This document shows, in pieces, positions 3,894-55,400 of a stretch of 64,000 bases of DNA. Under the pieces are notes generated by a model, which was given only the letters and a program-made list of their open reading frames with translations, was not told the DNA's origin and did no database searches. A program made the translations under genes and the position numbers. Every line of letters begins with the position of its first letter. Position 1 is the stretch's first letter. This DNA comes from a virus (lineage: Duplodnaviria; Caudoviricetes). The stretch spans positions 1-64,000 of IMG/VR virus record IMGVR_UViG_2898748948_000004; one strand, 5' to 3'.

Positions 3894-5165
3894 TTATTTC
3901 CCACTTGCTGCCGCGTTAGCGGCACGGTCAATTGCTTCAAGGCTGGCTTTGTGATCCAGAGGAAAGCCATCCGCGTCATGTAGTGCCGCTCCGAGCGCAT
4001 CCATCCCGTCACGGCGAATCTCAGACAGCACGAATGCCAGGCGCAGTGCATCCTGCGTCTGAGGTGCGTGCATGGGCAGGGGGGAGTGCTTCGGCTTGGC
4101 TGCCTGCTTGGCCCTGATGGCTTCAACCTTCGTCCAGATACGCGCCAGCTCCGCTTCCCCGCAGGCGTGCATGTCCAGGCCACTGGCCAGGCAGAGCGCC
4201 GCAAGGGTGACCATCACGCCGCCTGCCTCTTGCATGGGATCGCCCACAGGCCGTGCAAATACATAATCCACCAGCTGGTGCGCTTCGCTGGCCGTGCTGC
4301 CGCAGGACTGCACCAGTTCCAAGGCCTCTTCCAAAAAGCGGTGGTTGCGCTCAATGCGATCGGCCGAGATTTCAGGGCCGAAGCAGGCCATCATCCAGGG
4401 CTGCACCCGTTGCTGGAATGCCAGCGCCTGGAGCTGCAGCTCGAGGTGCTCGCCATCAGCCTTGACCAGCTCCTTGATGGCTCCGGTCAGGTAAGACCAC
4501 GCGAAATTGACGCCTTCATGCCCCAGTGCCGCGGCGATCTTCATTCGCGCCTTCTGGTCAGCCTGGGCCCGGTGGGTGAGATTTGCGACTACCTTGCATG
4601 CAGGCTCCAGCAAGTCTGTAACCACTGAATCGCCTTGCCACTCGTTGCTTCCGACAGCGGTGTTGATCGCTTCAACCAGCTTGAGGGGCAACGTCATTGC
4701 CTTGGTACAGTCAGTGCAGTCACATCGCTGGCAATCTTCGGCAACTGCAATCGCTTCCCGCAGATCGTGCGTTGTCGGCCGCGCGCCAATCAGGCCATTG
4801 GATACCCAACGAATTACAGAACCCTCTGCTGCAGGTGCGGATACTCCGCCCAGCAGGGCGCGCACTTGCTGCTCTGTATAGAGCTTTGTGCCGCGTACCA
4901 CAGTGTCTATGAGCCATTTCACATCAGGCTTCTTGCGCCACTCGAATGTCACTACAGCGGCAGGCTCAGGCAGCACAAGGTGCTCAGCTGCTTCGGGTAT
5001 TGCTTCAAGCGCTGCAGCTGCTGCCATATGTTCGTCATAGGCGGCTTTGGCGTCAGGCTCGCGCTCCCAGTCATCTCGGTTGATGCTAGTTGTGTGCGAT
5101 TGCTGAAGTTCTTTGGCGACGTTGCGCAGCAGGCGCACGGCTGTCGCTATCGTTGCTGTATTCAT
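3894..5165 (-). CDS. Mosaic accessory protein with C-terminal MazG-like (NTP pyrophosphatase) domain
   Basis: Probable start ATG 5165; RFLEEALELVQ...QEAGGVMVTLAALC all-alpha EExxE pattern; carries the RALLxGVSAPA linker. Confidence 0.65.
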   Translation of the reverse strand: MNTATIATAVRLLRNVAKELQQSHTTSINRDDWEREPDAKAAYDEHMAAAAALEAIPEAAEHLVLPEPAAVVTFEWRKKPDVKWLIDTVVRGTKLYTEQQVRALLGGVSAPAAEGSVIRWVSNGLIGARPTTHDLREAIAVAEDCQRCDCTDCTKAMTLPLKLVEAINTAVGSNEWQGDSVVTDLLEPACKVVANLTHRAQADQKARMKIAAALGHEGVNFAWSYLTGAIKELVKADGEHLELQLQALAFQQRVQPWMMACFGPEISADRIERNHRFLEEALELVQSCGSTASEAHQLVDYVFARPVGDPMQEAGGVMVTLAALCLASGLDMHACGEAELARIWTKVEAIRAKQAAKPKHSPLPMHAPQTQDALRLAFVLSEIRRDGMDALGAALHDADGFPLDHKASLEAIDRAANAAASGK

Positions 5166-5204
5166 GGTGCTATCCTGTTTTCCCGTTTTTGGCCGGGAGG
5201 TCAT

Positions 5205-5372
5205 ATGTGGACATGCAAGAGCTGCGGCTTGCTGGTGATGTTCAGTGCCGTTGATCCTGAGATAGATACACGCGGCTGCTACTTCCTGTGCCCTGGGTGT
5301 GAGCACAGGAATACGCTGATCAACGTTGATCGATCTGGCGACGGGGTAGCGCTGGCTCAGCCTTTGGATTGA
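5205..5372 (+). CDS. Small Zn-ribbon protein, antisense to the early operon (55 aa)
   Basis: GGGAGG 4 nt before ATG 5205; MWTCKSCG...CYFLCPGCEH (two CxxC pairs); fills the gap between two minus-strand genes. Confidence 0.55.
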   Translation: MWTCKSCGLLVMFSAVDPEIDTRGCYFLCPGCEHRNTLINVDRSGDGVALAQPLD

Positions 5373-6822: not shown

Positions 6823-8381
6823 GGTTGGCCTGCGTTGGGATTTCCGTCCGGGTAAGCACCGCCGCGCGTTTCCCACTGCTCGCGCATTAGCTTTCCAAGC
6901 TCCGCGGCTCCGTTACCAGCGATGGTCATGCCCTGGTGCTGGGGCACAGCTGCTGCAGGGGAGGCGGAAAGGCTAGCTGCGGTGGCTGACAGAAGCACTT
7001 CCCCGCGCTCCACGCCATCACGCGCGTCCGGCTGAATAACTCGCTCCAACGATTCCAAGGTTCGGTCTCGCAACTCGTGTTGCTCAGGGCCGCAAAGCGA
7101 AATCAGCTCTTTCATCCAATGAACCGGCACCGATACGCGGGACTCGGAAGCAGGTGCAGATACTCCGGCCAGCAGGGCGCGCACTGTGTCAGCATGGAAA
7201 GCGCCGGTTGCAGTACCGTCATTACTCCAGCACTGCCAGCCACGATCAGGGTGGATGGTTGCGCCAGGTCGCACCCAGAAATCAGGCTCAGGCAGAACCT
7301 CTGGAGCAGCTGCTAGAACCTCGGGTAGGGTGTAGACAGTCTCTGCTCGGTGATCATTGTGAATAATGAGGTCTGCCGGGTGGCGATAGAAAAGATCCAC
7401 TCCGGCGGGCGTCGTTACGACATATCCGAATGGCTGAGGGATTGTCCTCGCCACTGGCGCAGCTGCTGCCGCCAGCAGTTTCTGAACCTCGGCTATTGGA
7501 TCGCCTTCCTCTTCCATGCCCAGCGCGGTCAGGATTCGACAGTAGTTGTTCGCGTCCTCTTTCGTGACGGTCACCATGTCGGGCGCAGCTGCTGCCGGGG
7601 CGGCAACCAGTGGACCCGGTGCCACGATCAGCTTGCCTTCTGGGTCACTTGCGATGTCGCGTGCATCTCGCGGCTTCCCTGTATGCGGGTTGTGCGTGAC
7701 GATTCGTGCAGAGTTGAATTCGACCATCGCATGGTCCCCACACTTGCGGCAGCGAATCTGCATATGGTCGCCGAGCTGTCCTGGCGCAGCAGCTGCTGCC
7801 GGGGTGGCGGCAAGCGCGGCGCGGGCCTTCCATGCCTCAAGTGCATCGTGCGCGTCATCCCAGATTTGCTCATGCTCTTTTGCAGAGGATCGGTCAGTTA
7901 AAGCAGCCATTGAGGCCTCAAGCAGCTTCTCAAAAGCTGCGATCCCATCAGGCACTGCCACGGCTGCGGGCGCTGCCTGGGGCACTGGGAAGAGTTCGCG
8001 CAGCTTAGCTGCCATTTCCGCCGTGACAGCCATGTTCACGCTGTAATTGCCAAGATCCTTGAGGGCGCGGCATGCATCGAGGGCTGTGATTCCAAGGTCG
8101 CGGGCAATGTCGCGGATCAGCAGCGGCAGCGGCGCTGCTTGGTCAACTCGAGGGGCATGAGGGAAGTTGGCCCACCAGTTCACAGCGCTCAGAAAGTCAT
8201 GGGCACTGATCAGATACTGGTCTTCATTGCATGGGGTCTGGTCTGCTGCTGCAAACTTTGCCGAGATGAAGTCGGCATGGAAGAAGTCTCGAACATCCTT
8301 GGCGTCTTTTGGCCAGGCAATGGGCAGCGCTGGTTGCAACGGGGGGGACTCCGGTATCTGGTTGGTGACTTCGGTATGCAT
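6819..8381 (-). CDS. Mosaic accessory protein (520 aa)
   Basis: Ala/Pro linkers separate modules; shares three repeat modules with genes at 3894, 6006 and 16188; AGGAG RBS. Confidence 0.7.
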   Translation of the reverse strand: MHTEVTNQIPESPPLQPALPIAWPKDAKDVRDFFHADFISAKFAAADQTPCNEDQYLISAHDFLSAVNWWANFPHAPRVDQAAPLPLLIRDIARDLGITALDACRALKDLGNYSVNMAVTAEMAAKLRELFPVPQAAPAAVAVPDGIAAFEKLLEASMAALTDRSSAKEHEQIWDDAHDALEAWKARAALAATPAAAAAPGQLGDHMQIRCRKCGDHAMVEFNSARIVTHNPHTGKPRDARDIASDPEGKLIVAPGPLVAAPAAAAPDMVTVTKEDANNYCRILTALGMEEEGDPIAEVQKLLAAAAAPVARTIPQPFGYVVTTPAGVDLFYRHPADLIIHNDHRAETVYTLPEVLAAAPEVLPEPDFWVRPGATIHPDRGWQCWSNDGTATGAFHADTVRALLAGVSAPASESRVSVPVHWMKELISLCGPEQHELRDRTLESLERVIQPDARDGVERGEVLLSATAASLSASPAAAVPQHQGMTIAGNGAAELGKLMREQWETRGGAYPDGNPNAGQP

Positions 8382-8855: not shown

Positions 8856-10082
8856 TCAGCCCTTCGCACGGGCAGGCTGTTGAGAAGAGAGCGCCATCCT
8901 CCATTGCGAGGCATACAGGTATGCGCGCATGCGTTCGGTGATCACCCAGCGGCGCAGGTTCAGCTCGGCGGCCAGGGCGGTTGTGGCCCAGCCTCCGAAC
9001 GGATCTGCCACCAGCTGCCCAGGCTCGGAGGCAAAGCGCACCACATGCTCAGCCAGCGCCAGCGGCATCGTTGCCCCGTGGATGGGGATGCCTTCGGCCT
9101 TGGCCCAGGCGCGCAGGGCGGTCTGGCTCGGGCAGTTGTGGGGCACGGTGATCAGATTGCGGGGGATGCGGCCCGCTGTCTGGGCGCCGAATGCACCCGC
9201 CCGGCGCCGGTTGGCGCCATCGGCAAACACAGCCGCGGTCTTGGTGCCGCCGCTGGCGATCAGCCGTGCATGCTTTTCCGAATGGGGCTGCAGCACACGG
9301 CGGTTATCGGCAAAGCAGGCCTGCGGGTCGTTGGAAAACCAGTAGATGGGCTCCCATGCGGTGTTGACCTGCACCCGGCGCTTGCTGGCCCAGGCCACGG
9401 GGCCCGGTGCTTTGCTGGGGTTGTGCCAGATCCACTCGTCCATCTTGTGCAGGCCCAGGCGCTCATGCAGCGCCAGCACCAGCCTTTCGCGGTAGAGGGA
9501 TCGTGCGGGGCTGCCCGTCTCGAAGATGTCATTCGACACGCTCAGGAACAGGCTGCCGCCGCTGGCCAGCCGCGCGACAACCGGCTCCAGGCAGGTGCAG
9601 AGCCAGTCCACGTACTCAGCACGCTCGGGCCCGCCGTAGTCGCGCTGGCGTGCCAGCGGGTAGGGCGGGCTGGTCAGCACCAGATGCACGGGTTCATCGA
9701 GGCGGCTGAAGGCGTCCTTGCAGTCCGCCCACAAGGCCATGCCCAGTTCGGTGCTGAATCCAAGCTGCATCAGTCCTGGCGCGCAGGGCTCCAGATCCTG
9801 CTGGCGCTGCTCGATGGTGCGGCGGCCTGCAGCCGTGGGCCGCCAGACCCCGCGCTTGCCGGCCACCGGCTCCAGCAAGCCCAGGCGTTTGAGGGTCTGC
9901 TGATACCAGCGAACCCGGCGCTTGAGAGGGCTGTGCGGCTGACCCGCGGTGCCTACCGGTTGCCGCTCGGCCCAGGCCTCAGCCTTGATTCCCAAGTCTC
10001 GGCCCAAGCGCTCGTAGGCTTGGGCGTTGACCTGTGCACCCGCTTCATAGGCGTTGAGCACTCCGAAAAGGCTCAGTTGCAT
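8856..10082 (-). CDS. Beta-class amino (probably N4-cytosine) DNA methyltransferase with N-terminal winged helix
   Basis: Start ATG 10082 (AGGAGG upstream); catalytic VLTSPPY precedes SAM motif VADPFGG; N-terminal WYQQTLKRLGLLEP...RGVWRPT. Confidence 0.85.
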   Translation of the reverse strand: MQLSLFGVLNAYEAGAQVNAQAYERLGRDLGIKAEAWAERQPVGTAGQPHSPLKRRVRWYQQTLKRLGLLEPVAGKRGVWRPTAAGRRTIEQRQQDLEPCAPGLMQLGFSTELGMALWADCKDAFSRLDEPVHLVLTSPPYPLARQRDYGGPERAEYVDWLCTCLEPVVARLASGGSLFLSVSNDIFETGSPARSLYRERLVLALHERLGLHKMDEWIWHNPSKAPGPVAWASKRRVQVNTAWEPIYWFSNDPQACFADNRRVLQPHSEKHARLIASGGTKTAAVFADGANRRRAGAFGAQTAGRIPRNLITVPHNCPSQTALRAWAKAEGIPIHGATMPLALAEHVVRFASEPGQLVADPFGGWATTALAAELNLRRWVITERMRAYLYASQWRMALSSQQPARAKG

Positions 10083-10651
10083 GATGAGCCTCCTTGAGTC
10101 TCGGTTTCGGGAAGAAGGCCAAGACGCCCGCTCAGGATAGCGGCCTTGATGGTGTTTAGCTCCCAGCTGTAGGTGCTGGCATCCGCATAGATGCGCAGTC
10201 CCTTGCGGTAGTCGTGCTTCTTGCGCTTGATGAATGCTTCTGCAGCTGCCTTGGTGAAATGCTGATTCAGCGTCTCCCATCGGGTTGTCACATACAGCAG
10301 TGAGTAGTCGGGCAGGCACTCTTTCAGGGCTTGCTCTTGCTCGTACTCGTCAGAGTCCATAAAAGACCCGTCGCATGCTTTGTCGAGCTTTGCCTTGGTT
10401 TCGTCGCAGCAGCCTTCATAGAAATCAGGCACTGGCTCTGAATGCTCGCAGCCGTCAAAGATCACCGGGTCACCGCCGTAGCCTTCTGGCACCAGTTGCT
10501 CCACGGCCTGCTGCACCAGAAACACAGCGTCGGCCGTGTGATGGTCGCGGACGCCTTCGCCCACACAGTCATGGCGCAGGCGAGCTACGAAGTCGGCCCA
10601 TGTCTCGGGGGTCAGTTCAGCGCCCTGTGCCAGTGTTGTTGCCTGGGTCAT
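10073..10651 (-). CDS. Phage hypothetical protein (192 aa)
   Basis: ATGA-coupled start at 10651. Confidence 0.6.
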   Translation of the reverse strand: MTQATTLAQGAELTPETWADFVARLRHDCVGEGVRDHHTADAVFLVQQAVEQLVPEGYGGDPVIFDGCEHSEPVPDFYEGCCDETKAKLDKACDGSFMDSDEYEQEQALKECLPDYSLLYVTTRWETLNQHFTKAAAEAFIKRKKHDYRKGLRIYADASTYSWELNTIKAAILSGRLGLLPETETQGGSSCN

Positions 10652-17475: not shown

Positions 17476-19545
17476 TCAGGCATACATCCGAGCTTCGTGT
17501 TGAAAATTCCACCTTGCCAGCGCCGCTGCCATATATGGACTGACGCTGTTACCGATCATTCGCACCTGGGCGGTGGTCGTGAGCTTGATGCGCGGGATGT
17601 CCCGTGGATCGTCTACAGCCTGCACGCCATCCTTGAACAAGATCGCCGGGTCTGGGATCTCTTCAATCTGATAGCTGTCAGGAAAGCCCTGTGCACGCGC
17701 GAGCTCGCGGGGCTTGAGCATGCGAAGGGTGATGTCAACCAGCGCCCACCATTGGCCGCTGTGCCACATCAGCACAACGTCAGCGGCTTCTGGGAACTGC
17801 TCGGGCAGGTGCTCGCGCAGTAGGTCTGCGCACAGCTTGGCTCGCTCGGCGTGCTCAGGTGCCAGATGAGAGGCAGGTACCTTGGCGGTTTGCACCAGAG
17901 CCATGCGCGCCTTTGTGGGGACGGTATGCATGGGCTCGCTGCAGCTGCTGTCCTGACCGCCTTCGCTGTAATACTTGACAAGGCAAGCAGTTATCAAGCG
18001 CTGTTGGGTTCCGCTGGTGGTGATGGTCGAAAGCGGCTCGTCGGCCGGCCGACCATCCCCGTCATAGAAACCACCATAGGCCTGCTCCAGGCATACGGCT
18101 GCCAATGCACTCGTTGCGCCGCTGGCAGTGACGGTGTTCAGCGGCATTTCGATGTTGCGCGTGCCGTGGCTCCAACGCTTCCCACCCGCAGGCCCTTCGC
18201 CGTGGCCCATATCTACCAGATGTGCGGCGACCATCCCCATGGTGATCCCGGTACTGGGGCGCTTGGGCTTCCCGCCTGCCGTGACGGTGGGCAAGGGCTC
18301 ATCCAGCGAACTACCGACAGCACCCGTGTTGAACTTGGTGATGTGGGCAGCAGCCAGGGCGTGGTGGCGACCGCCTGCGGAAACCGTTGACAAGGGCGAT
18401 TGAACGCTGTGGCCGCCTAGGTGCTGCTCGCTCGTGCCACGCAGAGGCACGATGATCTGCGCGGCGCCGTCCACTGGTTTCAATGGTTGCAGCTCAGGTG
18501 TAACTACAGAGAAATGGCCACCCTTGACCTGGGCGCATACCGTGCGCAGCGGCTGGTCGGCCGGCATGGTGCGTTGGTTGCTGCCATTGGCGTGCTCATT
18601 GATAAACGGAGCGAGCACAGGAGCCGCGAGTGCCCCTTGAGATCCCTGGCTTGTCACAGTCCAATATGGGGCGTTCACATCGCGGATACGCGGCTCTTGT
18701 CCCTCGCGTTCACCGTTGCGGGTGTTCACGATGAAGGGCGTAGCTGTATTCAGCACATGGCGGAACACTCCCTTTGCTACCCGGCGCAGTGTGTTGGTCA
18801 CGAGATCGCGCTTGCGGCCGAAGATGCTTTCAGCGGGCAGGTCGAAGTCAATGCACTGTGCAGCAGTGCGATGGGCAGCCAGCAAGCCAGCAATAACTCT
18901 GTGATCTGTGGGCGCTGCATGAGAAGGGTCGCCCCAGTGAATGGGTATGCCGTCACGGCGCGCAACAAGGAACAGGCGCTTGCGAATGGTGGGTGCCCCC
19001 TGATCGCAGGCGCGCAGCTCGCGCCATTCCACGCTGTATCCGTGGGCGCGCAGCTGACGCTCAAAGGACTTGAAGGTGCGGCCTTTCTTTTTGGGATCTG
19101 GTCGGGCATTGCCGTTGGCATCCACCACCAGGGGGCCCCAGTCTTGGAACTCTTCGACGTTCTCCAGCATCATGATGCGTGGCTTGGTCTTTGCGATCCA
19201 GCGCAGCCCCACCCAGGCCAGGCCGCGTATCTTCTTGGAAACTGGTGTGCCGCCTTTGGCCTTGCTGAAATGCTTGCAATCCGGCGAGAGCCAGACAAGG
19301 CCGACAGGTCGATTGCCGGTCACTGAAATGGGGTCAACCTCCCAGACACTCTCGCACAGGTGCTTGGTGTAAGGGTGATTGATCGCATGCATGGCCAGCG
19401 CTTCGGGGTCATGGTTGATGGCGATATCGACGGGACGCCCAAAGGCCCATTCAAGACCTTTGCTGGTGCCACCTCCGCCAGCGAAGTTGTCAATGATCAA
19501 CTCACGCCCAAGATCCAGCGGCAGAGTGAAGTCGTCGCGCTTCAT
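17476..19545 (-). CDS. DNA (cytosine-5) methyltransferase with long TRD region
   Basis: Motif I DNFAGGGG, catalytic SPDC, LENV, R..RLF, C-terminal ELARAQGFP and IGNSV. Confidence 0.92.
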   Translation of the reverse strand: MKRDDFTLPLDLGRELIIDNFAGGGGTSKGLEWAFGRPVDIAINHDPEALAMHAINHPYTKHLCESVWEVDPISVTGNRPVGLVWLSPDCKHFSKAKGGTPVSKKIRGLAWVGLRWIAKTKPRIMMLENVEEFQDWGPLVVDANGNARPDPKKKGRTFKSFERQLRAHGYSVEWRELRACDQGAPTIRKRLFLVARRDGIPIHWGDPSHAAPTDHRVIAGLLAAHRTAAQCIDFDLPAESIFGRKRDLVTNTLRRVAKGVFRHVLNTATPFIVNTRNGEREGQEPRIRDVNAPYWTVTSQGSQGALAAPVLAPFINEHANGSNQRTMPADQPLRTVCAQVKGGHFSVVTPELQPLKPVDGAAQIIVPLRGTSEQHLGGHSVQSPLSTVSAGGRHHALAAAHITKFNTGAVGSSLDEPLPTVTAGGKPKRPSTGITMGMVAAHLVDMGHGEGPAGGKRWSHGTRNIEMPLNTVTASGATSALAAVCLEQAYGGFYDGDGRPADEPLSTITTSGTQQRLITACLVKYYSEGGQDSSCSEPMHTVPTKARMALVQTAKVPASHLAPEHAERAKLCADLLREHLPEQFPEAADVVLMWHSGQWWALVDITLRMLKPRELARAQGFPDSYQIEEIPDPAILFKDGVQAVDDPRDIPRIKLTTTAQVRMIGNSVSPYMAAALARWNFQHEARMYA

Positions 19546-29034: not shown

Positions 29035-29487
29035 GTGGCCGGTGTATGGGATGTGGGAGAGGGCGGGGTGTTGGTTTGCAGGTGCGCTGAGGGCTTTTCG
29101 GCGCACGCGCTGGCGCTGGCTGCGCAGCAGCTGTGGCTGCACGGCGGTATTACTGGAAGAGCGTTTGCTTGGCTTTTAGAGTTGCCAGGTGTTCGTCTGT
29201 CGGAGTGGCAGAGACTCGAGCTGGCTGCGGTTTTGAGGGAGGCGCTGACCGCGAAAACGCTGCCCGGTGCAGTAGTTGTGCTTCCGGGGGATGAGGATTG
29301 GATGCGCCAGCAGGCCTGGTCTCTTGCGCGAGAGACAGGCGGGGTGCTGGGCGTCTTTGTGGAGAGAGACGAGGCCCAGGAGTGGGCCCGTCAGCAGGCG
29401 TTGGTCTTTATTGGTGAGTCCGTCTGGCGAGTTCGAGAACTTGCAAACACGTTGCATAGGCCTGTGTCGAGGCCCCCGGGTCTTTGA
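29035..29487 (+). CDS. Possible STAS/SEC14 (SpoIIAA-like) domain protein converging on the repressor
   Basis: AVVVLPG...QAWSLA...GVFVERDEAQEWARQ resembles SpoIIAA-like C-termini; overlaps the repressor 3' end by 80 nt; start uncertain. Confidence 0.4.
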   Translation: MAGVWDVGEGGVLVCRCAEGFSAHALALAAQQLWLHGGITGRAFAWLLELPGVRLSEWQRLELAAVLREALTAKTLPGAVVVLPGDEDWMRQQAWSLARETGGVLGVFVERDEAQEWARQQALVFIGESVWRVRELANTLHRPVSRPPGL

Positions 29488-29788
29488 TCTTGTCCAGCTG
29501 ACGGGCAAGGAAGATTGCCTTGTCAGACAGGGGTTCGCCCTTGTCCGAAGGGGCGAAGTTGGGGTTCAGCAGCTCATGGATCTCCAGGCCAAAGGCCTTG
29601 GCAATCTTTTCAACCTTGTCTAGGCCAATTCCAAGGTCGGCATTCTGAAGTCGGGCTACGGTGCCCAGGCCAATTTCGGCGTCACGAGACAGGCGGCTGA
29701 TGTTGATTTTTCCGTAGTGCTGCAACATCAGCTTTTCAACCGCTGTCCACAGCTGGCTTTTTGCGTCGGGTGTTGGGTTGGAATTCAT
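29408..29788 (-). CDS. Phage repressor, XRE-family HTH, no S24 peptidase domain
   Basis: ISRLSRDAEIGLGTVARLQN...GLDKVEKIAKAFGLEIHELL; divergent from the Cro-like gene. Confidence 0.85.
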   Translation of the reverse strand: MNSNPTPDAKSQLWTAVEKLMLQHYGKINISRLSRDAEIGLGTVARLQNADLGIGLDKVEKIAKAFGLEIHELLNPNFAPSDKGEPLSDKAIFLARQLDKIKDPGASTQAYATCLQVLELARRTHQ

Positions 29789-29815
29789 GCCACAAATGAT
29801 AAGACTTCCGTGTAA

Positions 29816-29890
29816 TTTTCGTAAGTGGTAAGGACATTGCGGGCTGTAAGAGCTTGCCGCAAGTTGAAAATTGCTTTCCAGATATGGCAA
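29816..29890. promoter_or_regulatory. Right operator region (three operator copies)
   Basis: TTTTCGTAAGTGGTA 29816-29830, TTGCCGCAAGTTGAA 29854-29868, reverse TTGCCATATCTGGAA 29876-29890 between repressor and cro. Confidence 0.7.
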
Positions 29891-29900
29891 GATATTAGGC

Positions 29901-30137
29901 ATGAACGATCTCATGTCCGTTTTTGCCAAACTGCAAAAGCGAATCTCGAAACTTACTGGTGCCCAGGTCGATAAGCTGGCAGAACTGTCTGGCGTATCCG
30001 CGACCACGATTCACCGCGTCCGCTATAGCTACAAGAAGCCGCGCCTGGAGAACATTAGCGAGCTCCAGAAGCACATCGATGCCGCAGAACGTGCGCCCAA
30101 ACGTCGCCCGCGCAAGAGCCAGCAGGTGGCAGCATGA
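29901..30137 (+). CDS. Cro-like HTH protein
   Basis: VDKLAELSGVSATTIHRV...PRLENISEL; first rightward gene, no RBS (possibly leaderless). Confidence 0.75.
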   Translation: MNDLMSVFAKLQKRISKLTGAQVDKLAELSGVSATTIHRVRYSYKKPRLENISELQKHIDAAERAPKRRPRKSQQVAA

Positions 30138-34591: not shown

Positions 34592-34830
34592 CGGACTTCA
34601 TCAAAGCCTGGGTGCTGCTGTTGTTCTGGTCGCCTGAGCTGCTTCGCACGCTGGCGCTGGACTTGACGGGCCGCTTCTACATCTTTCGAGACTCGGCCGA
34701 CGAGTTCATGAACTTTCTAGCCTGGCTGCAGGTGAATGGGCCTGACTGGTGCCGCGACCAGCCTCGCTATTTCGCCAGGGCCAGTGACGAACGCGAACGC
34801 CGCGCCATTGTGAAAAGGAGCCGTGCATGA
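34588..34830 (+). CDS. Hypothetical protein (80 aa)
   Basis: GTGA/ATGA coupled. Confidence 0.5.
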   Translation: MTDFIKAWVLLLFWSPELLRTLALDLTGRFYIFRDSADEFMNFLAWLQVNGPDWCRDQPRYFARASDERERRAIVKRSRA

Positions 34831-36029
34831 TGAGCACGCGATTTGAGCTGTACGAGGGCGATTGCCTTCAAACCCTGCGTGGCCTAGCCGAAAACTGTGT
34901 GGACAGCATCGTGACCGATCCGCCGTATGGACTGGCCTTCATGGGTAAAAAATGGGACTACGACGTTCCCAGCACAGAGATTTGGGTCGAATGTCTGCGC
35001 GTGCTCAAGCCAGGCGGTCATCTTTTGGCATTCGCTGGCACTCGCACCCAGCACCGTATGGCGGTGCGCATCGAGGATGCCGGATTCGAGATACGCGACA
35101 TGATCGCGTGGCTGTATGGCAGCGGCTTCCCGAAGTCGCGCAACATCGCCAACGACATGCAGGAGCCAGGCAATGCAGCCGCGTGGGCTGGTTGGGGCAC
35201 AGCCCTGAAGCCGGCTCTGGAGCCGATCACCCTGGCGCGCAAGCCGCTCTCCGGCACCGTGGCTGGCAACGTGATCGCGCACGGTACCGGGGCGCTCAAC
35301 ATTGGCGATTGCCGCGTGCCAGCTGAGCCGATGCCGCCGAACACGGGCAGCGGAGGCCTGCCGCGCCGGAGCGAGGACGAGCAGCGCGGCCCCGGCGTCG
35401 TCTCGCAGCCGCATGAAGCTGGCCGCTGGCCCGCTAACTTGATCCATGACGGCAGCGCCGAGGTGGTTTCTCTGTTCCCTGCCCAGGCTGGGGCAGCAGC
35501 ACCCGTCCTCCGACGCAACGGCGACAAGTTCCAAAACAGCTATGGCGCCTTCGCTGGCAACGACAACGAGGGCGGCAGCTCTTTTCACGGCGACAGTGGA
35601 AGTGCAGCCCGCTTCTTCTACGTGCCAAAGGCCTCGCGCTCTGATCGAAATGAGGGCTGTGAAGGCCTGGAGCGCAAGCCTCTACTCTGGTCCAGCGGAA
35701 CACAGAACCCTGGCAGCTTCCAGGCCGAAGGCACTGACAAACGCAGCCAGAACAACCACCCGACCGTGAAACCAACAGCCCTCATGGGCTATCTGTGCCG
35801 CCTTGTGACGCCAGCAGGCGGTGTGGTGCTCGACCCATTCATGGGTAGCGGCAGCACTGGTAAGGCGGCAATGCGTGAAGGCTTCTCCTTCATTGGCTGC
35901 GAGTTGAACGCCGAGTACTTGGCGATTGCCAAGGCTCGTATTGAGCATGAGTTGGCCCGCGCCATGTCAGCGCCTGAAACAACAACCAGCATTAACCAGC
36001 GCGATCTGTTTGCAGAGGTATCCCTGTGA
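34827..36029 (+). CDS. Beta-class amino (N6-adenine-type) DNA methyltransferase
   Basis: IVTDPPY; NHPTVKP; VLDPFMGSGSTG; GCEL. Confidence 0.9.
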   Translation: MMSTRFELYEGDCLQTLRGLAENCVDSIVTDPPYGLAFMGKKWDYDVPSTEIWVECLRVLKPGGHLLAFAGTRTQHRMAVRIEDAGFEIRDMIAWLYGSGFPKSRNIANDMQEPGNAAAWAGWGTALKPALEPITLARKPLSGTVAGNVIAHGTGALNIGDCRVPAEPMPPNTGSGGLPRRSEDEQRGPGVVSQPHEAGRWPANLIHDGSAEVVSLFPAQAGAAAPVLRRNGDKFQNSYGAFAGNDNEGGSSFHGDSGSAARFFYVPKASRSDRNEGCEGLERKPLLWSSGTQNPGSFQAEGTDKRSQNNHPTVKPTALMGYLCRLVTPAGGVVLDPFMGSGSTGKAAMREGFSFIGCELNAEYLAIAKARIEHELARAMSAPETTTSINQRDLFAEVSL

Positions 36030-40405: not shown

Positions 40406-41311
40406 ATGGCCACATCACCGGCAGGCAAGCGGCCTGCACCGAAGAAGACAGCGACCCCCAAAAAGCCCACTGCACCTAAAAAGGCCGTGGGCATTTCTGC
40501 GTCCAAGGCCAAGGCCGCAGCGAAGACTAAGGCCGCCACAAAGGCGCTGGCTAGGACTGCTACGAAAAAGATAGCTATAAGCGGCCGCCATGCAGGTGAT
40601 TTGACCGATTTGCAGAGTCGGTTTGTTGACGAGTATCTGATTGACCTCAACGCCACCAAGGCCGCCATTCGGGCTGGATACAGCGAGAAGACAGCGGCTG
40701 TAATCGGTAGTGAAAACCTAATAAAACCTAATATAGCTGCTGAAATTCAGCTACGAAAACAAGAGCGACAGCAACGCACAGAGATTACTGCGGACGTTGT
40801 TCTGCGTGAGGTGTGGCAAATGTTCCGGGCCGATGCCCGCGAGCTGGTTGAGGTGCGGGTGGGCTGCTGCCGCCATTGCTATGGCGAAGGACACAAGCGC
40901 CAGCGCACTGTGGCGGAGATGAATGCAGCCCGTGAAAAGTGGATCGACTCGGGCAAGGTGCCACTGGATTTCGATGAAGAGGGCGGCATTGGCTTCAATC
41001 CTCTGCTACCGCCTCATCCAACCTGCCCTGAGTGCGGTGGCGATGGTTACTCGCGTGTGGTGCTGCACGACACCCGCAAGCTCTCGCCAGAGGCCGCCAG
41101 CCTCTACGCTGGTGCCAAGCATGGCAAGAACGGCATTGAGATCCAGATGCATGACAAGGTGGGCATTGCTGAAAAGCTGTTCAAGCACCTTGGCTTGTAC
41201 GAGGCTCACAACAAGCAGCGCAATGCTGCTCAGGAGGCGCTGGCCGGCCTGGCTACTTCTGAGCTGCTGGCATTGCAGGCCCGACTGCTGGGCGGCGGGG
41301 AGGGCGGGTGA
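40406..41311 (+). CDS. terS: Terminase small subunit
   Basis: QSRFVDEYLIDLNATKAAIRAGYSEKTA; Zn-finger insert CCRHC...CPECGG; K/A-rich N-terminal tail. Confidence 0.88.
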   Translation: MATSPAGKRPAPKKTATPKKPTAPKKAVGISASKAKAAAKTKAATKALARTATKKIAISGRHAGDLTDLQSRFVDEYLIDLNATKAAIRAGYSEKTAAVIGSENLIKPNIAAEIQLRKQERQQRTEITADVVLREVWQMFRADARELVEVRVGCCRHCYGEGHKRQRTVAEMNAAREKWIDSGKVPLDFDEEGGIGFNPLLPPHPTCPECGGDGYSRVVLHDTRKLSPEAASLYAGAKHGKNGIEIQMHDKVGIAEKLFKHLGLYEAHNKQRNAAQEALAGLATSELLALQARLLGGGEGG

Positions 41312-42045
41312 TGGATGTATCCCGCCTATCTCCCGAGGTTCGCGCCGAGATGCTTGCTCAGCTCAAGGCTCTGCTGGCAACTCGCAAGATCGACACCATG
41401 TACCCCGAGAAGGGGCCGCTACGCCGTGAACTCTATAAGAAGCATCTGGAGTTCTTCAAGGCGGGCGCTACCTATCGTGAGCGGTGCGCCATGGCGGCCA
41501 ACCGGGTGGGCAAGACCGAGGGCATGGGTGGGTATGAGACTGCCTTGCACCTGACTGGGCGCTATCCCCACTGGTGGGACGGAAGGCGTTTTGATCACCC
41601 GGTCAACTTCTGGGCTGCCGGCAAGACCAATGAGACGACCCGCGACATCGTGCAGAACAAGCTGTTCGGCGCGGTCACGGGCGTAGCCCAGGCCAAAGCC
41701 TTTTCCGGTACCGGGCTGGTCTACGGGGATTGCATTGGCAAGATCGCCTGGAAGCAGGGCGTGGCCGACCTCGCAGACACGGTGATGGTCAAGCATGTCT
41801 CGGGCGGATGGTCGCAGTTGGGCCTCAAGTCCTACCAGCAGGGGCGCGGCAGCTTTGAGGGCACGGAGCGCCACGGGATATGGCTTGATGAAGAGCCACC
41901 GCTGGACATTTACAGCGAATGCCTGATTCGTACTGCCACCACGAACGGCATTGTCTACATCACCTTCACCCCGCTGGAGGGGACGACGGGGACGGTGCTG
42001 ATGTTCATCAACCCCGAGGCGGTGGGGAAGGTGGAGGCTGACTGA
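41308..42045 (+). CDS. terL: Terminase large subunit, ATPase domain (separate ORF)
   Basis: AANRVGKT Walker A, IWLDEEPP Walker B, TFTPLEG coupling motif; stops at TGATG. Confidence 0.88.
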   Translation: MMDVSRLSPEVRAEMLAQLKALLATRKIDTMYPEKGPLRRELYKKHLEFFKAGATYRERCAMAANRVGKTEGMGGYETALHLTGRYPHWWDGRRFDHPVNFWAAGKTNETTRDIVQNKLFGAVTGVAQAKAFSGTGLVYGDCIGKIAWKQGVADLADTVMVKHVSGGWSQLGLKSYQQGRGSFEGTERHGIWLDEEPPLDIYSECLIRTATTNGIVYITFTPLEGTTGTVLMFINPEAVGKVEAD

Positions 42046-42809
42046 TGCCAGCCGTTACCGAAAGCCGCTACCTCGTCACCGCTGGCTGGGACGATGTGCC
42101 CCACTTGGACGCAAAGACCAAGAAGGAGCTGTGGGACAGCTCGCCACCTCATGAGCGCGAAGCCCGGGCGCGCGGCACGCCCACGCTGGGCAGCGGCCGT
42201 ATCTTCCCTGTGGAAGAGGACAGCATCAAGGTCACGCCCTTTGCCATTCCCGCTCACTGGCCGCGCATCAATGGCATTGACTTCGGCTGGGATCACCCCA
42301 CGGCAGCTGTGCAGCTGGCCTACGACCGCGAAGCGGATTGCATCTATGTGGTGCACGTCCACCGCGAGAGCCTGCAAACCCCGGTCATCCATGCCGCCAC
42401 GGTCAAGGCCTGGGGGCCGTGGGTTCCTACCTCCTGGCCGCATGACGGTTTGCAGCACGACAAGGGAAGCGGCGAGCAGCTGGCCAAGCAGTACGCGGCA
42501 GCTGGTCTGCTGATGCTCAAGGATCGCGCCACCTTCCCCGATGGCTCCAACGGGGTTGAGGCCGGGCTGATGGACATGCTCGAGCGCATGCAGACCGGTC
42601 GTCTCAAGGTGTTCAGCCACCTCAGCCTCTGGTTTGAAGAGTTCCGCCTTTACCACCGCAAGGACGGGAAGGTGGTCAAGCTGCGCGACGACTTGATGAG
42701 CGCCACCCGATACGCACTGATGATGCTGCGCAAGGCCAAGGTCAGGCCCATGCCGCAGGCGCAATCCCAGAACAACTGGGCCCCACTAGATAGAGAGATT
42801 GGGTACTGA
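42045..42809 (+). CDS. terL: Terminase large subunit, nuclease domain (separate ORF)
   Basis: GWDDVPHL, GIDFGWDHPTA, WPHDG, DDLMSATRYA; GGAGG RBS 5 nt before the ATG. Confidence 0.88.
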   Translation: MPAVTESRYLVTAGWDDVPHLDAKTKKELWDSSPPHEREARARGTPTLGSGRIFPVEEDSIKVTPFAIPAHWPRINGIDFGWDHPTAAVQLAYDREADCIYVVHVHRESLQTPVIHAATVKAWGPWVPTSWPHDGLQHDKGSGEQLAKQYAAAGLLMLKDRATFPDGSNGVEAGLMDMLERMQTGRLKVFSHLSLWFEEFRLYHRKDGKVVKLRDDLMSATRYALMMLRKAKVRPMPQAQSQNNWAPLDREIGY

Positions 42810-46298: not shown

Positions 46299-47441
46299 AT
46301 GAGCATGGAACAGGAAGACCAAGGTTTTGAACAAGGCTTTGCCTCTGTGATGAACCTCGAACCCGAGCAGCACGCACCCGCAGCTGATGCTGCCGATGCA
46401 GGTAATGCCGGTGGCGAGGTCGAGCAGGGCGCAGCCCAAGACAATGCCAATGGCTCCGATGCTGGTGCCCCCGAAGCGCCCGCTCCCGAAGCGCCCTCTG
46501 GTGAAGCGGGTGCAGCTGAATCTGGTGAGCAGGGCGCGGCCCAAGCTGCCAGCGAGCAGGGGGGCGCAGGGGATGGCGGTACGCCGGCTGATGCAGATCC
46601 AGACCCGAACGACGAGGTTCTACTCGATGGCCTGACCCGCCGCGAAGTACGCAACCTCCTATCGCGTGCCTCCGAAGTGGAAGGGCTCAGCGCGGGCCTG
46701 CGCAAGGTTCACGGAAAGATTGGCGAGTTGAACGACCGGCTCCGCAAGGCCCCGGCTGAACATGCCCCCGGTAACTACGGCGGCATTGCGCTCTCTGGTC
46801 TGGAAGGTGAAGCCTTTGACAAGGCGGTCACGGATGTGATGGCTCAAGCAAAGATTGATGCTGCCGCATTCGGTGATTACTCCGAAGAAGGCCTGGTGCG
46901 CGGCATCGTGACCACCATGCTCCGCATGCAGCAGCTCCAACAGTTGCCGCAGGTACAGAAGGTGCCGGCTGAGCCGGGCGGGCAGGGCGCGGCCTTGCCC
47001 GTGGACATGCCGCATTCCGCTGCAGCTGAGGGTCACACCCCGGCTGAATCCCAGCACGTAGACACGGCCTCGGCCGAAGCTGCCCAGCAGCACAGCGATC
47101 CCAGCATCCACGTTGAGCAGTTGGTGCTCGACCGCGTTCGCCCCGGCTGGCGCGAGACGGTTGCTGGACAGGAATTCAATCTCTGGCTTGGTGCGCAAGA
47201 CCAGTCGTATCAGCAACAGTACCTGCAGGCCAACACCGCCGAGAAATTCGCCGGTGTGCTCGACACGTTCGGGCAGTGGAAGACCGCGCGTGAAGCTGCC
47301 GTCTCCAAGAGTGCCAAGGCACAGGAGCGCTTGGAGCGCTCGCTGACTCCGACAGGACATGTACCCAAGCCTGCTGCCGCGATGACGGAGGACGAGGAAT
47401 TTGAAGCCGCGTTCGCCGCCGTCTCCAAGCAGCGCCTGTAG
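46299..47441 (+). CDS. Capsid scaffolding-like protein
   Basis: Acidic, low-complexity, directly before the capsid gene; PGWRETVAGQEFNLWL motif; DEEFEAAF tail. Confidence 0.65.
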   Translation: MSMEQEDQGFEQGFASVMNLEPEQHAPAADAADAGNAGGEVEQGAAQDNANGSDAGAPEAPAPEAPSGEAGAAESGEQGAAQAASEQGGAGDGGTPADADPDPNDEVLLDGLTRREVRNLLSRASEVEGLSAGLRKVHGKIGELNDRLRKAPAEHAPGNYGGIALSGLEGEAFDKAVTDVMAQAKIDAAAFGDYSEEGLVRGIVTTMLRMQQLQQLPQVQKVPAEPGGQGAALPVDMPHSAAAEGHTPAESQHVDTASAEAAQQHSDPSIHVEQLVLDRVRPGWRETVAGQEFNLWLGAQDQSYQQQYLQANTAEKFAGVLDTFGQWKTAREAAVSKSAKAQERLERSLTPTGHVPKPAAAMTEDEEFEAAFAAVSKQRL

Positions 47442-49742: not shown

Positions 49743-51827
49743 ATGGCCAACCCCAAAGATGAATTCCAGCGACAGCAGCAAGCTGTGGCAGCTGCTGATG
49801 CGAAGGGCGGACAAGTTCAAGGCTTGGCTGTCTCGACTGACCCCAGCAATGCCAGCCGCTTTGCCAAGGTGCCCCCGGGCATCGGTGGTAATCCGCTCGT
49901 TCAGCAGTCGGCGCAAGCGGAAAAGAACACGAACCCCATTGCGGAAGCGGCTATGACCACGCCTGCTGCGCCAGCTGCCTCCCCTAAACCAAGCGCGCAA
50001 TCGCCGGGCTTCACCCCAGCGCCAGCTACGAACTCTGCTGCAGGTTCCGCAGCTGCCGTGCCACTTTCCCCGCAGGCTCAGTCCGATAGAGCGCGAGTCG
50101 GCGCAGCCTGGGATACCGTCAAGGATGTGAACGACGACGCCGGCCGGGCCATTGCGGATATGGCGATGCTCGTGCCTCGCGGCGTGGCGGGTGCGTATGA
50201 CAGCGCCGTGGTTCGACCCATGCGCGCCGCCGGCGTCAATGCCAGCTACCTGAGCCCCCATCTGGTGCCTGATGGCGTCGATCCAAGTAGCATGACGCCG
50301 TTCACCGACCAAAAACGCATGCAGCAGGCCGCCAACAGCAGAGCGCCTGGCGCTGCAGCTGTGCAGCCAGCTCAGACCGCTGGTGCCGGAGCGGGTACCT
50401 CTGAAGTCGGTGGCGGGCGCGGTTCCATCAATCCGCCGATGGCTGACCCCAGCGCACCGACCACGACCCTGGCCGGTGGTGCGACAGTAACGGGCAACCC
50501 CATGGCCCAATGGGATCGCACTGGCATGACCAATGCCGAGGTGGCACAAGCCAACCCGGGTGGCCGAGTGACCATGCAGCGCCAGCCCAATGGAACCATG
50601 TCTTTCAGCGGCACTGATGTATCGGGGCCGGTGTCTTACGCAGATGGTGCGGGCAAGCCGCTGCCTGGTGCAGGCATTCGCGGCAATGGCTTCAGCCGGG
50701 TAGATTCGACCCCCGCGGGCGCTTCTGTTGGCATGGACGGCGCAGGCAACTATGCATTTTCGAGCGGAAACCCGCTCACCAATGGCGCATCTGCTGGCCG
50801 GTCTCCTGTGGGAATGTCTGTTGAACAGGCTCAGCGCGAAGGCTTGATTGGTCAGCGAGTCGGATACAACCCTGCATATGACCAGCGGCTCACGGGCGAG
50901 AAGAGCCAGGCACCTGACAAAAACACTGGAGCTGCATCTTCTACAGTGGATTCTGCGCTCGCATCTGCGGCTGCAAGGGGTGACTTTGACGCTGTGCGCG
51001 CCCACTACGCGGGGCGCGGCCAAGAGTTTGGCCCGCAGGGGGCAGCACAGGGCACGGGTGTTCCTGCATTCGAGGCTCCTACTGTGCGCCACAGCGGCAA
51101 TGACTGGGCGGCGCGTCAGCAACTCAAGGATATGGAGGCTTCTGCGAGTTCGATCACCAACCGTGCCGAGTGGCGCAGTGGCAGCAGCACCCCCGCATGG
51201 GGCTCGCGCCATCAAGGGCAGAACGACCCGGACGGAAAGGTCGCGCGCTTCAATGCTGCCACCCAGGCCGATCTGGCTGCGCAAGGCAAGGCGCCTGACC
51301 TGCAGCAGCGCACCAATGAAACGAATGCCGGACTGCAACGCGCCGCCATGAGCGAGCAGGGTGAAAACTACCGGGCTGCCGGCAGAAATGCCATCGCAGC
51401 TGCTGGTCTGGCTCAACGCGGCCAGGAAATTAGCTCTCAGGCGGAGCTGCAAAACCTGGAGGTACAGCGCGCTCAACGCAGTGCTGGCGTCATGCAGCGC
51501 TATGACTCAGCCAAGGATGACGCAGAGCGCATGCAGCTCATTCGCCAATACCCTGATGTATTTGGGCAAAAGGCCATCGGGCCCCAGGGCAAAGACCGCT
51601 ACATGACCGTTGGCGGTGGAACGTCTGTGGTGGACGGTCAGACAGTGCGCGAGCCAACCATGGTGTTCGATACTGTCACTCAGCAGTACGTTGGCGGGGG
51701 TGCGCCTGGTGGCGGTCAGGCCGGACAACCAGCAAAAGCGCCGACCTACGAAAAGGATCAGATCTACGTCGATCCACAGTCAGGTGCGAAGCGGCGATGG
51801 AATGGACAGAGCTGGGATCGCGTGTAA
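49743..51827 (+). CDS. Internal virion/DNA-ejection-like protein (694 aa)
   Basis: Ala/Gly/Gln-rich and largely unstructured; C-terminal YVDPQSGAKRRWNGQSW; position before the giant virion protein. Confidence 0.6.
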   Translation: MANPKDEFQRQQQAVAAADAKGGQVQGLAVSTDPSNASRFAKVPPGIGGNPLVQQSAQAEKNTNPIAEAAMTTPAAPAASPKPSAQSPGFTPAPATNSAAGSAAAVPLSPQAQSDRARVGAAWDTVKDVNDDAGRAIADMAMLVPRGVAGAYDSAVVRPMRAAGVNASYLSPHLVPDGVDPSSMTPFTDQKRMQQAANSRAPGAAAVQPAQTAGAGAGTSEVGGGRGSINPPMADPSAPTTTLAGGATVTGNPMAQWDRTGMTNAEVAQANPGGRVTMQRQPNGTMSFSGTDVSGPVSYADGAGKPLPGAGIRGNGFSRVDSTPAGASVGMDGAGNYAFSSGNPLTNGASAGRSPVGMSVEQAQREGLIGQRVGYNPAYDQRLTGEKSQAPDKNTGAASSTVDSALASAAARGDFDAVRAHYAGRGQEFGPQGAAQGTGVPAFEAPTVRHSGNDWAARQQLKDMEASASSITNRAEWRSGSSTPAWGSRHQGQNDPDGKVARFNAATQADLAAQGKAPDLQQRTNETNAGLQRAAMSEQGENYRAAGRNAIAAAGLAQRGQEISSQAELQNLEVQRAQRSAGVMQRYDSAKDDAERMQLIRQYPDVFGQKAIGPQGKDRYMTVGGGTSVVDGQTVREPTMVFDTVTQQYVGGGAPGGGQAGQPAKAPTYEKDQIYVDPQSGAKRRWNGQSWDRV

Positions 51828-51831
51828 CAGC

Positions 51832-52359
51832 TCAGTTGCGCAGAGGGACTGCACGGGCCGGGTTGAAGTCATCCCCGGCCTTTTTCATTTCTTGGTAGGT
51901 GCTCAAGGGAACAGCGCGAGAAGGGTCGAAGGTGTCATCCTTGCCGGCAGCACGATTGGGCAGGGCTCCCGGGCTGGAAACAGGTACGCGCCCTTCGGCT
52001 GCGTCAAACTGGTGGTCGTTGGTTCGTGTATAGACCGTGCCTAGCATCAGCAGTGCGGCGCAACCGATGCCCACCGCGATTCCAATGGCCTTGGTTGGGA
52101 GGTTCACAGTGAAATAACCAATGGCCGTGCCCAGCAGGCTCCACCAGAAGGCCTGAGCGAACATGGCCGGCAACGCCGATTGTTGTGGCGTCATACCGGT
52201 GGCGCTCATTAATCCGATGGCCAGCATTGAGCCCGCCAGCAGTCCGCCGGACATCGATACCCCCCAGATAACCCCGGCGCCCGCCGCCCTGAACTGCATG
52301 CGACGCATGTAGTGGGCAGCCAAACAAGCAATGGCTGTGCACAGTGCGAAGTAGATCAT
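51832..52359 (-). CDS. Antisense multi-pass membrane protein with FDPSRAVP repeats
   Basis: GGAG RBS; about four hydrophobic helices; tail DDTFDPSRAVP...DDFNPARAVPLRN. Confidence 0.7.
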   Translation of the reverse strand: MIYFALCTAIACLAAHYMRRMQFRAAGAGVIWGVSMSGGLLAGSMLAIGLMSATGMTPQQSALPAMFAQAFWWSLLGTAIGYFTVNLPTKAIGIAVGIGCAALLMLGTVYTRTNDHQFDAAEGRVPVSSPGALPNRAAGKDDTFDPSRAVPLSTYQEMKKAGDDFNPARAVPLRN

Positions 52360-52433
52360 TGGAGCTCCCCTTTTTTGGCGGATTGTAACTATTGTCACTT
52401 GTGGCATGAAATAGTCGCGTTTGCGGGGTGCAG

Positions 52434-52450
52434 CCCTGCATAGGGTTTAG
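52434..52450 (+). promoter_or_regulatory. Late-promoter motif, copy 3 (upstream of the giant gene)
   Basis: CCCTGCATAGGGTTTAG 30 nt before ATG 52481. Confidence 0.55.
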
Positions 52451-52480
52451 CGTTTTGCGTGCCCCGGATGACATTGGGGT

Positions 52481-55400
52481 ATGAGCGCAAATGACCAATT
52501 CGACCCCAGCCGTGCCGTACCTGTGAACTCTGCCGCCAGCCAGAAGCCGGAAGACGACTTCAACCCTGGTCGTGCCGTACCGATGAATGCGGATAACGCT
52601 CTGGTGCGCGGCTGGAAGTCGATGAGCAACTCGGTGGGAATCACCAAGGATCTGGCAACGGGTGATGCAGCGGCTGTGGCGCGCCGAGTCAAGGAATTTG
52701 ACGACTACAACCGCGTCAATCCTGGCAGTCAGCAGGGTCAAGAGCTGTCCAAGGCATGGGAGCAAGGCGACGGCATCACGGGCGGCATCGCAGGCGTTGC
52801 CGGCGAAATCGCCAAGGATTGGAAGGAAGCACCCAACTGGGTAGGTGGCGTGCGCTCGGTGGCTGGCAATGCAAAAGCCATGGGCGATGGCCTGGTTGCC
52901 CAGGTGCCCAATATGCTGGCACCGATGGTCGGTATGGTGGGCGGTGGTGTTGCGGGCGGCGCGGCAGCGGGGCCGGTTGGTCTGGCTGCTGGTGCATGGG
53001 CAGGCGCCTCTGCTGGCAATACGCTGGTCGAGGGCGGTGGCATGCTCATGGATCGCCTGAACAAGGCTGGCATCAATCCTCAAGACACTGCGGCCGTGGA
53101 GAAGTTCACCCGCGAGCAAGGCGATGCTGCGCTGGGTGATGCTGCCATCAAAGGCGCCATCATCGGAGCCGTTGATGCAGCCACCGCTGGCGCTGGCGGC
53201 AAGATCCTGAACGCGCCGGCGAGAGCAGCGGCAGACCGTGCACTGACGAAGATGGGCGTTGACATGACGGACGGCGCGGCGGTCAAGGCCGCTCAGAAAT
53301 CCGATGCCTTCAAGGATCTGGTCGCCAAGGATGCGACCTTCCAGGCTGCAAGCTCAGGCGCTGGCAATGTTGCCCGTAACGTGGGCGTCGCTGCTCTTGA
53401 TCCCGCAGGCGAGTTTGCCGGCGAGTTCGTGGGACAGGGCGTTGCCACCGGTGACTGGGACACCAAGAACGCGGCATTGGAAGCGATCTCGTCCGTGGGG
53501 CAGTCGGCCCTCATGTACGGTGGCCAGAAGGCCTATCAGGCGGCGACCAGCCCCCTGCGGGACAAGCGCGCGAACGAGTCTGACAAGGCCGATGGCGAAC
53601 CGGAGGCAGGCAATCCAGTGCCGCTCATGCTGACCAATCAGCCCCCCGACACCTTGTTCACCCATCCAGACGGTTCTACAGGACGCCGCTCCGAAATGGA
53701 GTCGTACTTGAACAGTCTCAATGATGGGACGCCTGCCGGCGAGCGCCGGATGATGAAGGAGCGTGCCCGCTTGTTGGGCTATTCCTCGCCCGAGCCCTAC
53801 GAGTTTGAAATTCCTGATCTCGTGCCTTGGCAAGAGGACTATCGCAATCACTCCTTCGGTCTGCCGTATCAGCCACTGCAAGATCATCTGGGCGCCGTTC
53901 AAGCAGCCGTGCGTAGCGGAACCCAGTTCACAGATCAGCAGACTGTCGATGCTGTGCGCTCCACCATGGAAGACGCTTGGCTTGAGGCCAACGTAAAGCA
54001 GCAGCCCGCGTCGGCGGTCGAGGCAGCCAGCATTGCCGGTCAGCAGATGGAGCAAGAACTGGCCGCGGCGGCGCCTGGTGAGACAGGTTCCACAGCAGCT
54101 GTCGATGCCCAGGTGCGCACCAGCCGAATACTGTCTGGTCTGCAGAATGCCATGGACAGCGGTGCCATGGGAACAGCCCAGTCCATCAACTATCTGAACG
54201 AGGCCCTGACTCGCATTGGTGAGCAACCGCTCGCGCAGGACGAGGCAGCGCGCGCTCGCCGTCTGCTCGATGCGCATGCGGCATTCACCGGAAAAACCAC
54301 GCCCGCGCCACTGCCGGGTGATCTCGCCGCTCAAAACCCTTTGGTCGATGAGTTTGCCGACAACGCGGCATTGGAGTCCCTGGTTCGGCGCAAGCCATCT
54401 GAGCGACTGGGCATTGATCCCAGTGCCGGGCCCAACTCGAAAGCCGCAGCAATGGCGGTCGATGCGGCGCAGTCCGAGCCTGCAACCCCTGCCATCGATG
54501 CGGCTCAGCCTCTATCGCTCCAGAACCCGCTGTTGGCCATTTCATCCAGCAGGGAGAACGCCGCTCCAGCGGCATCGCCATTCAACATCAACGGAGATCT
54601 CGATGGCCGTGAAGCCTATCAAGCCCAGCAAATCAGAGCGCAACAGGCGCAAGCAAGAGCAGCGCAAGGCAGCGAAGCTGGTGGCCGACAAGACCAAAGC
54701 ATTTCAGGCATTGGCAGTGCACCTGGGCATTTGGGGCAAGGCGTAGGCTATGGCACCGCCCCAGCTATCAACAATGGCCCGCAAGTCCCAGCGCAGAATG
54801 CAACGCAAGGCCAAGCGTCAGAAGCTCAGACTGCTACGGAAACAGGAGCGCGCGAAACACGAGAACCCAGCACCTTCTCAAAGTATGCAGGTCAGAGTGA
54901 ATCCTCTGAGGCCAATGGCGCTATAAATTCAGAGGCGAAGCAGGCGGCGCAACCCGCTTCCGACGCCATGACCATCGGCAGCACCCCCAAGACTGGCGAT
55001 GCGGTGTCTGTGCGCGACGGCGTTGTGTATCTGGGTAACTATGAGGCGCTGGACTACGACAGTGGCGAACCCATCACGGTTCCCGCCGACGCAACTCGTG
55101 GCCAAGTGGCCCAGGCCCTGCGCGATGGCGGGGTACTGACCGACCGCCAAAAGGTCTTCGGCCTCAAAGACCGCGAGCATGAGCGCATATCCGGCCCGGT
55201 GGCCCCCGCCGTTCAAGCTCCGGCTCCTGCGCCGGCCGCCAATGCGCCTGCACCGAATCCTGCGAGGCTGCGCCAGCAGAAGGCCATCGAGCGTATCAAC
55301 AGCGAGAAGGGCGCCTACTTCTTCTCCAAGTCCAAGGCCGATGCATTCCTGGCCGATAACGATCTGCAGGACGGCTATGAGGTCGTGCAGCAAGAAAAAG

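Follow-up and report, generated by a model that had tools for sequence, protein, structure and literature searches.

A putative lock, key and decoy code among the ejection proteins of F116/SU10-like temperate podophages

The phage T4 proteins Imm and Spackle reside in the cell envelope and confer superinfection exclusion by targeting entry proteins. HK97 gp15, TP-J34 Ltp and Tuc2009 Sie are placed in the same class in the discussion of Leavitt et al. 2024 (PMC10883804). The SieA protein of phage P22, described in the same study, blocks the conduit proteins gp16 and gp20 stoichiometrically, and gp16 and gp20 function only as matched sets. SieA blocks conduit assembly or function, its effect is saturable, and escape maps to gp16/gp20 (PMC10883804). 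It is encoded by a small antisense inner-membrane gene beside the ejection genes, and the locus analyzed here is arranged alike: a 175-aa protein, predicted from its sequence to be a small inner-membrane protein, is encoded antisense beside genes for ejection-type proteins. SieA of the P22 type, the one type compared, exhibits no homology to the 175-aa protein (BLASTP E 0.34), and a check of SieA for a copy of gp16 found none.

The window is a 64,000-nucleotide stretch of DNA, positions 1 to 64,000 of IMG/VR record IMGVR_UViG_2898748948_000004. The whole record is 86 kb long, is classed as a provirus, and encodes a portal and an adaptor of the SU10 type together with a major head protein. An HTH repressor-like gene is located at 29408-30007, and a search of the record, which is 91% complete, for a tyrosine integrase or S24 peptidase was negative. 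Among relatives whose host is named, Comamonas prophages are the closest. The terminase large subunit (41308-42809) appears as two adjacent ORFs of 245 and 254 aa with a one-base overlap. Three stand-alone DNA methylases (8856-10319, 17476-19545 and 34827-36029), one of them fused to Mrr_N, are present in addition to the methylase-like part of the giant protein. The gene order following the adaptor is a 694-aa low-complexity protein, the antisense 175-aa gene and a 5,215-aa giant, and the ORF calls and coordinates given for these three proteins in the initial annotation were right (Table 1).

Table 1 Features of the putative lock, key and decoy locus.
Feature	Coordinates	Strand	Remarks
Scaffold-position protein domain	47106-47279	+	Also appended to some decoy-family members (P0137, 55% identity; P0130, 48%)
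Upstream low-complexity ejection-type protein, 694 aa	49743-51827	+	phrog_11341
Putative lock, ~27-aa C-terminal domain	51744-51824	+	Y-x-D...G..RRWNG..W class; class switches with motif
Putative decoy gene, 175 aa	51832-52359	-	Inner-membrane protein: 4 TM helices (residues ~2-114), disordered linker, motif tail
Decoy motif copy 2, FNPARAVP	51844-51867	-
Decoy motif copy 1, FDPSRAVP	51907-51930	-
Giant polyvalent ejection-type virion protein, 5,215 aa	52481-64000 in the window	+	Ends at 68128 of the record (G000)
Key motif 1, FDPSRAVP, giant N-terminus	52499-52522	+
Key motif 2, FNPGRAVP, giant N-terminus	52559-52582	+

The giant comprises LPD1, a methylase-like region, AAA_34 and Helicase_C_4, with a Gly-rich hydrophobic stretch near residue 145. 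LPD, methylase and SWI2/SNF2-like domains are thus combined in one giant ORF within the virion genes, which is the mark of polyvalent, IVP-D-like proteins. Sequence searches of the PDB with the first 1,000 residues of the giant and with the 694-aa protein identified no relatives. A comparable giant of the F116 group, H66 gp60, is a virion protein verified by mass spectrometry, and its homology to IVP-D is noted by Hardies et al. 2016 (PMC4819975). The direct similarity of the window's giant and 694-aa protein to H66 is weak; from synteny and the comparison with H66 we infer an ejection role for both.

The membrane protein ends with two FDPxRAVP motifs that correspond to the start of the giant and are conserved at the protein level, as the initial annotation had reported. 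A six-frame scan of the whole record located the motif at four sites only, 52499 and 52559 in the giant and 51930 and 51867 in the membrane gene. A further stretch taken as a motif copy, 'NDHQFDAAEGRVP', is not a third copy and falls within the unconserved linker. The FDPSRAVP codons quoted for the two genes are correct and differ synonymously at 6 of 8 positions. Conservation at the protein level was confirmed by comparison with three homologues, in which the tail retains 33/34, 29/34 and 31/34 residues, its codons having undergone 6-13 synonymous changes, whereas the linker retains only 8/32, 5/24 and 6/21. The far better preservation of the tail, together with the many synonymous changes, shows purifying selection on the tail peptide. 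Copy 2 is still 74% complementary to the DNA of the giant over 38 nt, and because of this residual complementarity an old inverted duplication may be the origin of copy 2.

The structure model of the membrane protein shows four long helices at residues 2-114 followed by the disordered linker. Basic residues reside in loops 1 and 3, and by the positive-inside rule the tail is predicted to be periplasmic, in agreement with the display of the motifs proposed earlier. Searches of Pfam, PHROG, NCBIfam and PADLOC with the 175-aa protein assigned no family, and the PADLOC profiles of catalogued anti-phage systems matched 0 of 19 family members. The best fold match (Z score of 7.6) was to generic helical bundles, with nothing specific, and the best ESM Atlas score of 0.81 is below the useful level. 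No sigma-70 promoter or terminator consensus was found at 51600-52700. Transcriptome contigs, from which neither strand nor level can be read, include two 151-nt pieces within the 175-aa gene in one transcriptome; two other transcriptomes, also as contigs only, exhibit flat genome-wide cover.

The C-terminal RRWNG..W domain of the 694-aa protein, named earlier as one candidate partner of the motifs, co-varies with both the tail and the giant motif. It was modelled as a three-stranded β micro-domain (pLDDT 83), and across loci the swappable micro-domain spans the C-terminal 25-35 residues of this protein and its counterparts. A fold search with a 35-residue model, in which WW-like peptide-binding folds were considered, yielded a best Z score of 2.7 and no Foldseek hit at E<=0.001.

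The motif variants of the tail and of the giant N-terminus change together across prophages, which was the check proposed for the mimicry reading. In the own-pair test, the tails of 28 distinct loci were aligned with their own giants in a class-blind manner and compared with 100,000 permutations. The mean own-pair score was 41.9 versus 19.6±2.0 for permuted pairs, with a permuted maximum of 30.9; the set includes L024, a false recruit as 'giant', which makes the test conservative. The motifs were assigned post hoc to ~11 classes, of which both the own-pair and the nearest-neighbour tests are independent. Class concordance was 28/30 between tail and giant, 29/31 between giant and domain (shuffled mean 4.8) and 39/39 between tail and domain. 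One of the two giant/domain misses, at L013, was traced to a gap in the domain search pattern. The other is L069, where tail and lock belong to one class and the giant to another, a mismatch that is either real or due to a chimeric contig. The giant N-termini of L069 and L075 carry two motif classes (PFxGxLD and GPW), and the lock and tail of L069 belong to a third. Giants of two classes occur at L075, L011 and L023 and could serve as stepping stones for class switching.

Part of the lock/key concordance could reflect co-inheritance, because lock and key are genetically linked. In class-blind comparison, the nearest neighbour by lock domain is among the four best of 27 by motif in 22/28 loci, and this also applies to 9/11 loci whose nearest neighbour by lock has an unrelated giant body. 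The partial Mantel correlation of lock versus key over the whole matrix is modest (r 0.15, ~2.5 SD). The spacer between domain and motif, occupied by unrelated genes, ranges from ~0 to 5 kb, which argues against mere linkage. Over residues 38-400 the giant of the sibling prophage L001 is 96% identical to that of the window, but all three parts (key, lock and tail) are swapped: the giant starts with IDxFL twice, the upstream protein ends with an IRDN-class domain, and the homologous membrane protein ends with ISEFL. The DNA identity between L001 and the window breaks off over the lock/key/tail cassette alone. For carrier P0076 (locus L088), the motif of the giant and the domain of the upstream protein agreed with a forecast made before the locus was retrieved. 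Matched pairs span phages of Comamonadaceae and Pseudomonas.

A pair composed of an AARLKEMGY lock and a PDxSxMS key precedes a 620-690-aa protein, with no giant, at L012 (15243+) and L016 (15419+), so that the code extends beyond polyvalent giants. L080 is an exception, as its giant lacks the expected motif. At this locus tail and lock are seemingly exchanged by inversion, real or an assembly artefact, across an 18-nt inverted repeat (4238-4255 / 6913-6930), and the inversion accounts for L080 better than a decoy that bears a lock. The region between decoy and giant is a hotspot for cargo in L001, L031, L088 and L096, with genes resembling antirepressors and Arc, toxin-antitoxin-like pairs and further genes with a possible defence role.

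The same motif set is found on two unrelated exported carriers, the 4-TM family of the window, with 15 representatives, and the secreted VF_A0006 family (PF28034 / NF041602). At L095-L098, the tails of the 4-TM family match either the giant or the upstream domain. VF_A0006 proteins are soluble four-cysteine carriers with no membrane span and a hypervariable tail of ~12 motif classes, and they bear the motifs at L002 and L011 (DQFGG; NxFDQFD). The window's protein (P0001) does not match the VF_A0006 signal peptide and four-Cys domain, and P0076 matches the family at E 3e-9, below the curated cut-off. Different tails occur on carrier cores that are 97-100% identical, and a carrier tree of 104 tips requires 63 tail-class changes compared with 72 when shuffled. 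The tails of P0135, P0136 and P0142 contain a second motif that is non-self. A multi-motif 4-TM decoy of two classes is also carried by L094, which encodes its own protein homologous to the upstream ejection protein, with 49% identity across 300 aa. This 6.7-kb Logan contig resembles a satellite, with an AlpA-like gene, a Toprim primase and DUF927. Some carriers bear the scaffold-position domain of Table 1, and a similar-looking helical domain is appended to P0138, P0141 and L071. The P22 scaffold recruits ejection proteins (PMC8402733), and for that reason one may speculate that the scaffold-like domain on carriers is a second bait.

The lock/key pairing extends to cultured Hollowayviruses. 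F116, H66 and LKA5 combine GYRFKGG with KPWEEF, and the pairing also holds in D14S (FDPxTA class) and PA8 (ALPKG class). A search beside the ejection genes of F116, H66 and D14S yielded no decoy, and none of the cultured phages encodes the 4-TM carrier. LKA5 (L089) contains an unannotated VF_A0006 gene on the plus strand (~4950-5297) that ends with KPWEEY. Genes of this type were also matched in E220, phiC725A and F1Pa, and the JBD90 copy is seemingly frameshifted in the tail. In F116 (L103, NC_006552), the frame that opens with the KPWEEF motifs at 3618+ stops after ~37 codons, which suggests a frameshift or a sequencing error at the start of its giant.

The sequence comparisons indicate that a three-part code in F116/SU10-like temperate podophages is real, selected and widespread. 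Probably, the upstream domain docks the key of the giant during assembly of the DNA conduit and the periplasmic tail acts as a decoy key that confers superinfection exclusion. The lock domain, at the end of a periplasmic tube protein, would bind the key motifs of the giant after ejection and so join the conduit. A lysogen or an already infected cell would display the decoy motif in the periplasm, where it would fill the lock of a same-class phage attempting entry, such that the giant could not dock and DNA entry would stall. The periplasmic placement would separate the decoy from the phage's own cytoplasmic assembly, and escape from the decoys of rivals would drive the diversity of lock/key classes. 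The molecular mimicry first proposed is supported in its testable parts, namely covariation, topology and candidate partner, but it had captured a single class of a larger modular code.

Several other explanations were weighed against this decoy reading. A neutral relic of an inverted duplication, or chance, would be in keeping with the complementarity that copy 2 retains to the DNA of the giant. It is scarcely credible given the strong purifying selection on the tail and the repeated matching in ~11 classes on two carriers, and the own-pair test and tail conservation largely refute it. It is improbable that the copy has a role in the phage's own cycle, as a chaperone or titrant of its own ejection protein in assembly or as a timer of lysis, even though most tails match the phage's own class and in some P22 ejection proteins the N-terminal parts function in procapsid loading (PMC8402733). 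Export takes the tail away from assembly, the gene runs antisense to the late operon and is missing from viable phages, and non-self motifs and satellite carriage fit such a role poorly. Exclusion of others is preferred over a role in own assembly because the tails are exported, the decoy is optional, and non-self motifs and carriage by a satellite occur.

Two further proposals concern the partner and the consequence of binding. Key and decoy may both bind a third partner, either in the host envelope or another virion protein, the upstream domain being merely linked; the three elements do lie in one cassette and are able to move together. However, domain and motif stay matched across ~0-5 kb of unrelated DNA, the match extends over phages of both Comamonadaceae and Pseudomonas regardless of the giant body, and one host receptor common to eleven dissimilar motifs is unlikely, which renders this arrangement very improbable. 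Equally doubtful is a sensor, in which binding of an incoming lock would cluster the four-helix part and trigger depolarisation or abortive infection. The conserved 4-TM part and the two tandem motifs, which could cross-link, would suit a sensor, but identical tails reside on the soluble four-cysteine carrier that lacks a membrane span, and there is no PADLOC match.

The decoy reading has a broader form, which is favored by a narrow measure: at least 11 orthogonal micro-domain/peptide pairs, modular and fast-diversifying, would join podophage ejection proteins, and prophages and satellites would exploit them through periplasmic decoys that are interchangeable, in some cases polyvalent and in some also equipped with scaffold-derived bait. 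The result would be 'compatibility groups' for entry that depend neither on repressor immunity nor on receptor use. If true, the code offers a concrete, sequence-readable interface by which the DNA-delivery conduit of short-tailed phages is joined, and a reason for the high variability of ejection-protein ends, both of which are open points in the P22 work (PMC10883804). Exclusion would become predictable from sequence, which is relevant to the choice of phages against lysogenic hosts. The uncharacterised VF_A0006 family would gain a role, and a natural set of small orthogonal domain-peptide pairs is suggested.

The literature searched, with most subscription papers outside its scope, contains no description of the mimicry or of the lock/key code. 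SieA differs from the 175-aa protein in that sieA follows gene 16, its action is broad with no class specificity, and mimicry is unreported for it. HK97 gp15, Ltp, Tuc2009 Sie and T4 Imm/Spackle act on long-tailed phages or on a tail lysozyme, and display of a peptide copied from the target is not described for any of them. The giant resembles the polyvalent virion proteins of Iyer et al. 2017 (PMC5512222) in its LPD1, methylase-like and SWI2/SNF2-like parts, and H66 gp60 (PMC4819975) in its internal-virion-protein position; swappable N-terminal motifs, an upstream C-terminal domain and decoys are unmentioned in the available portions of these two papers. The VF_A0006 family, to which no function is assigned and which is unnamed in the literature searched, is alike as a second carrier of the same tails, yet is unrelated to the window's 4-TM family. 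A prophage-encoded FimU-like pilus mimic likewise defends by resembling a protein required for infection but, as far as the accessible text goes (PMC12952977), copies a host pilus subunit at adsorption and no motif of a phage ejection protein. Most likely, the putative decoy represents a new mechanism in the established class of superinfection exclusion systems that block entry.
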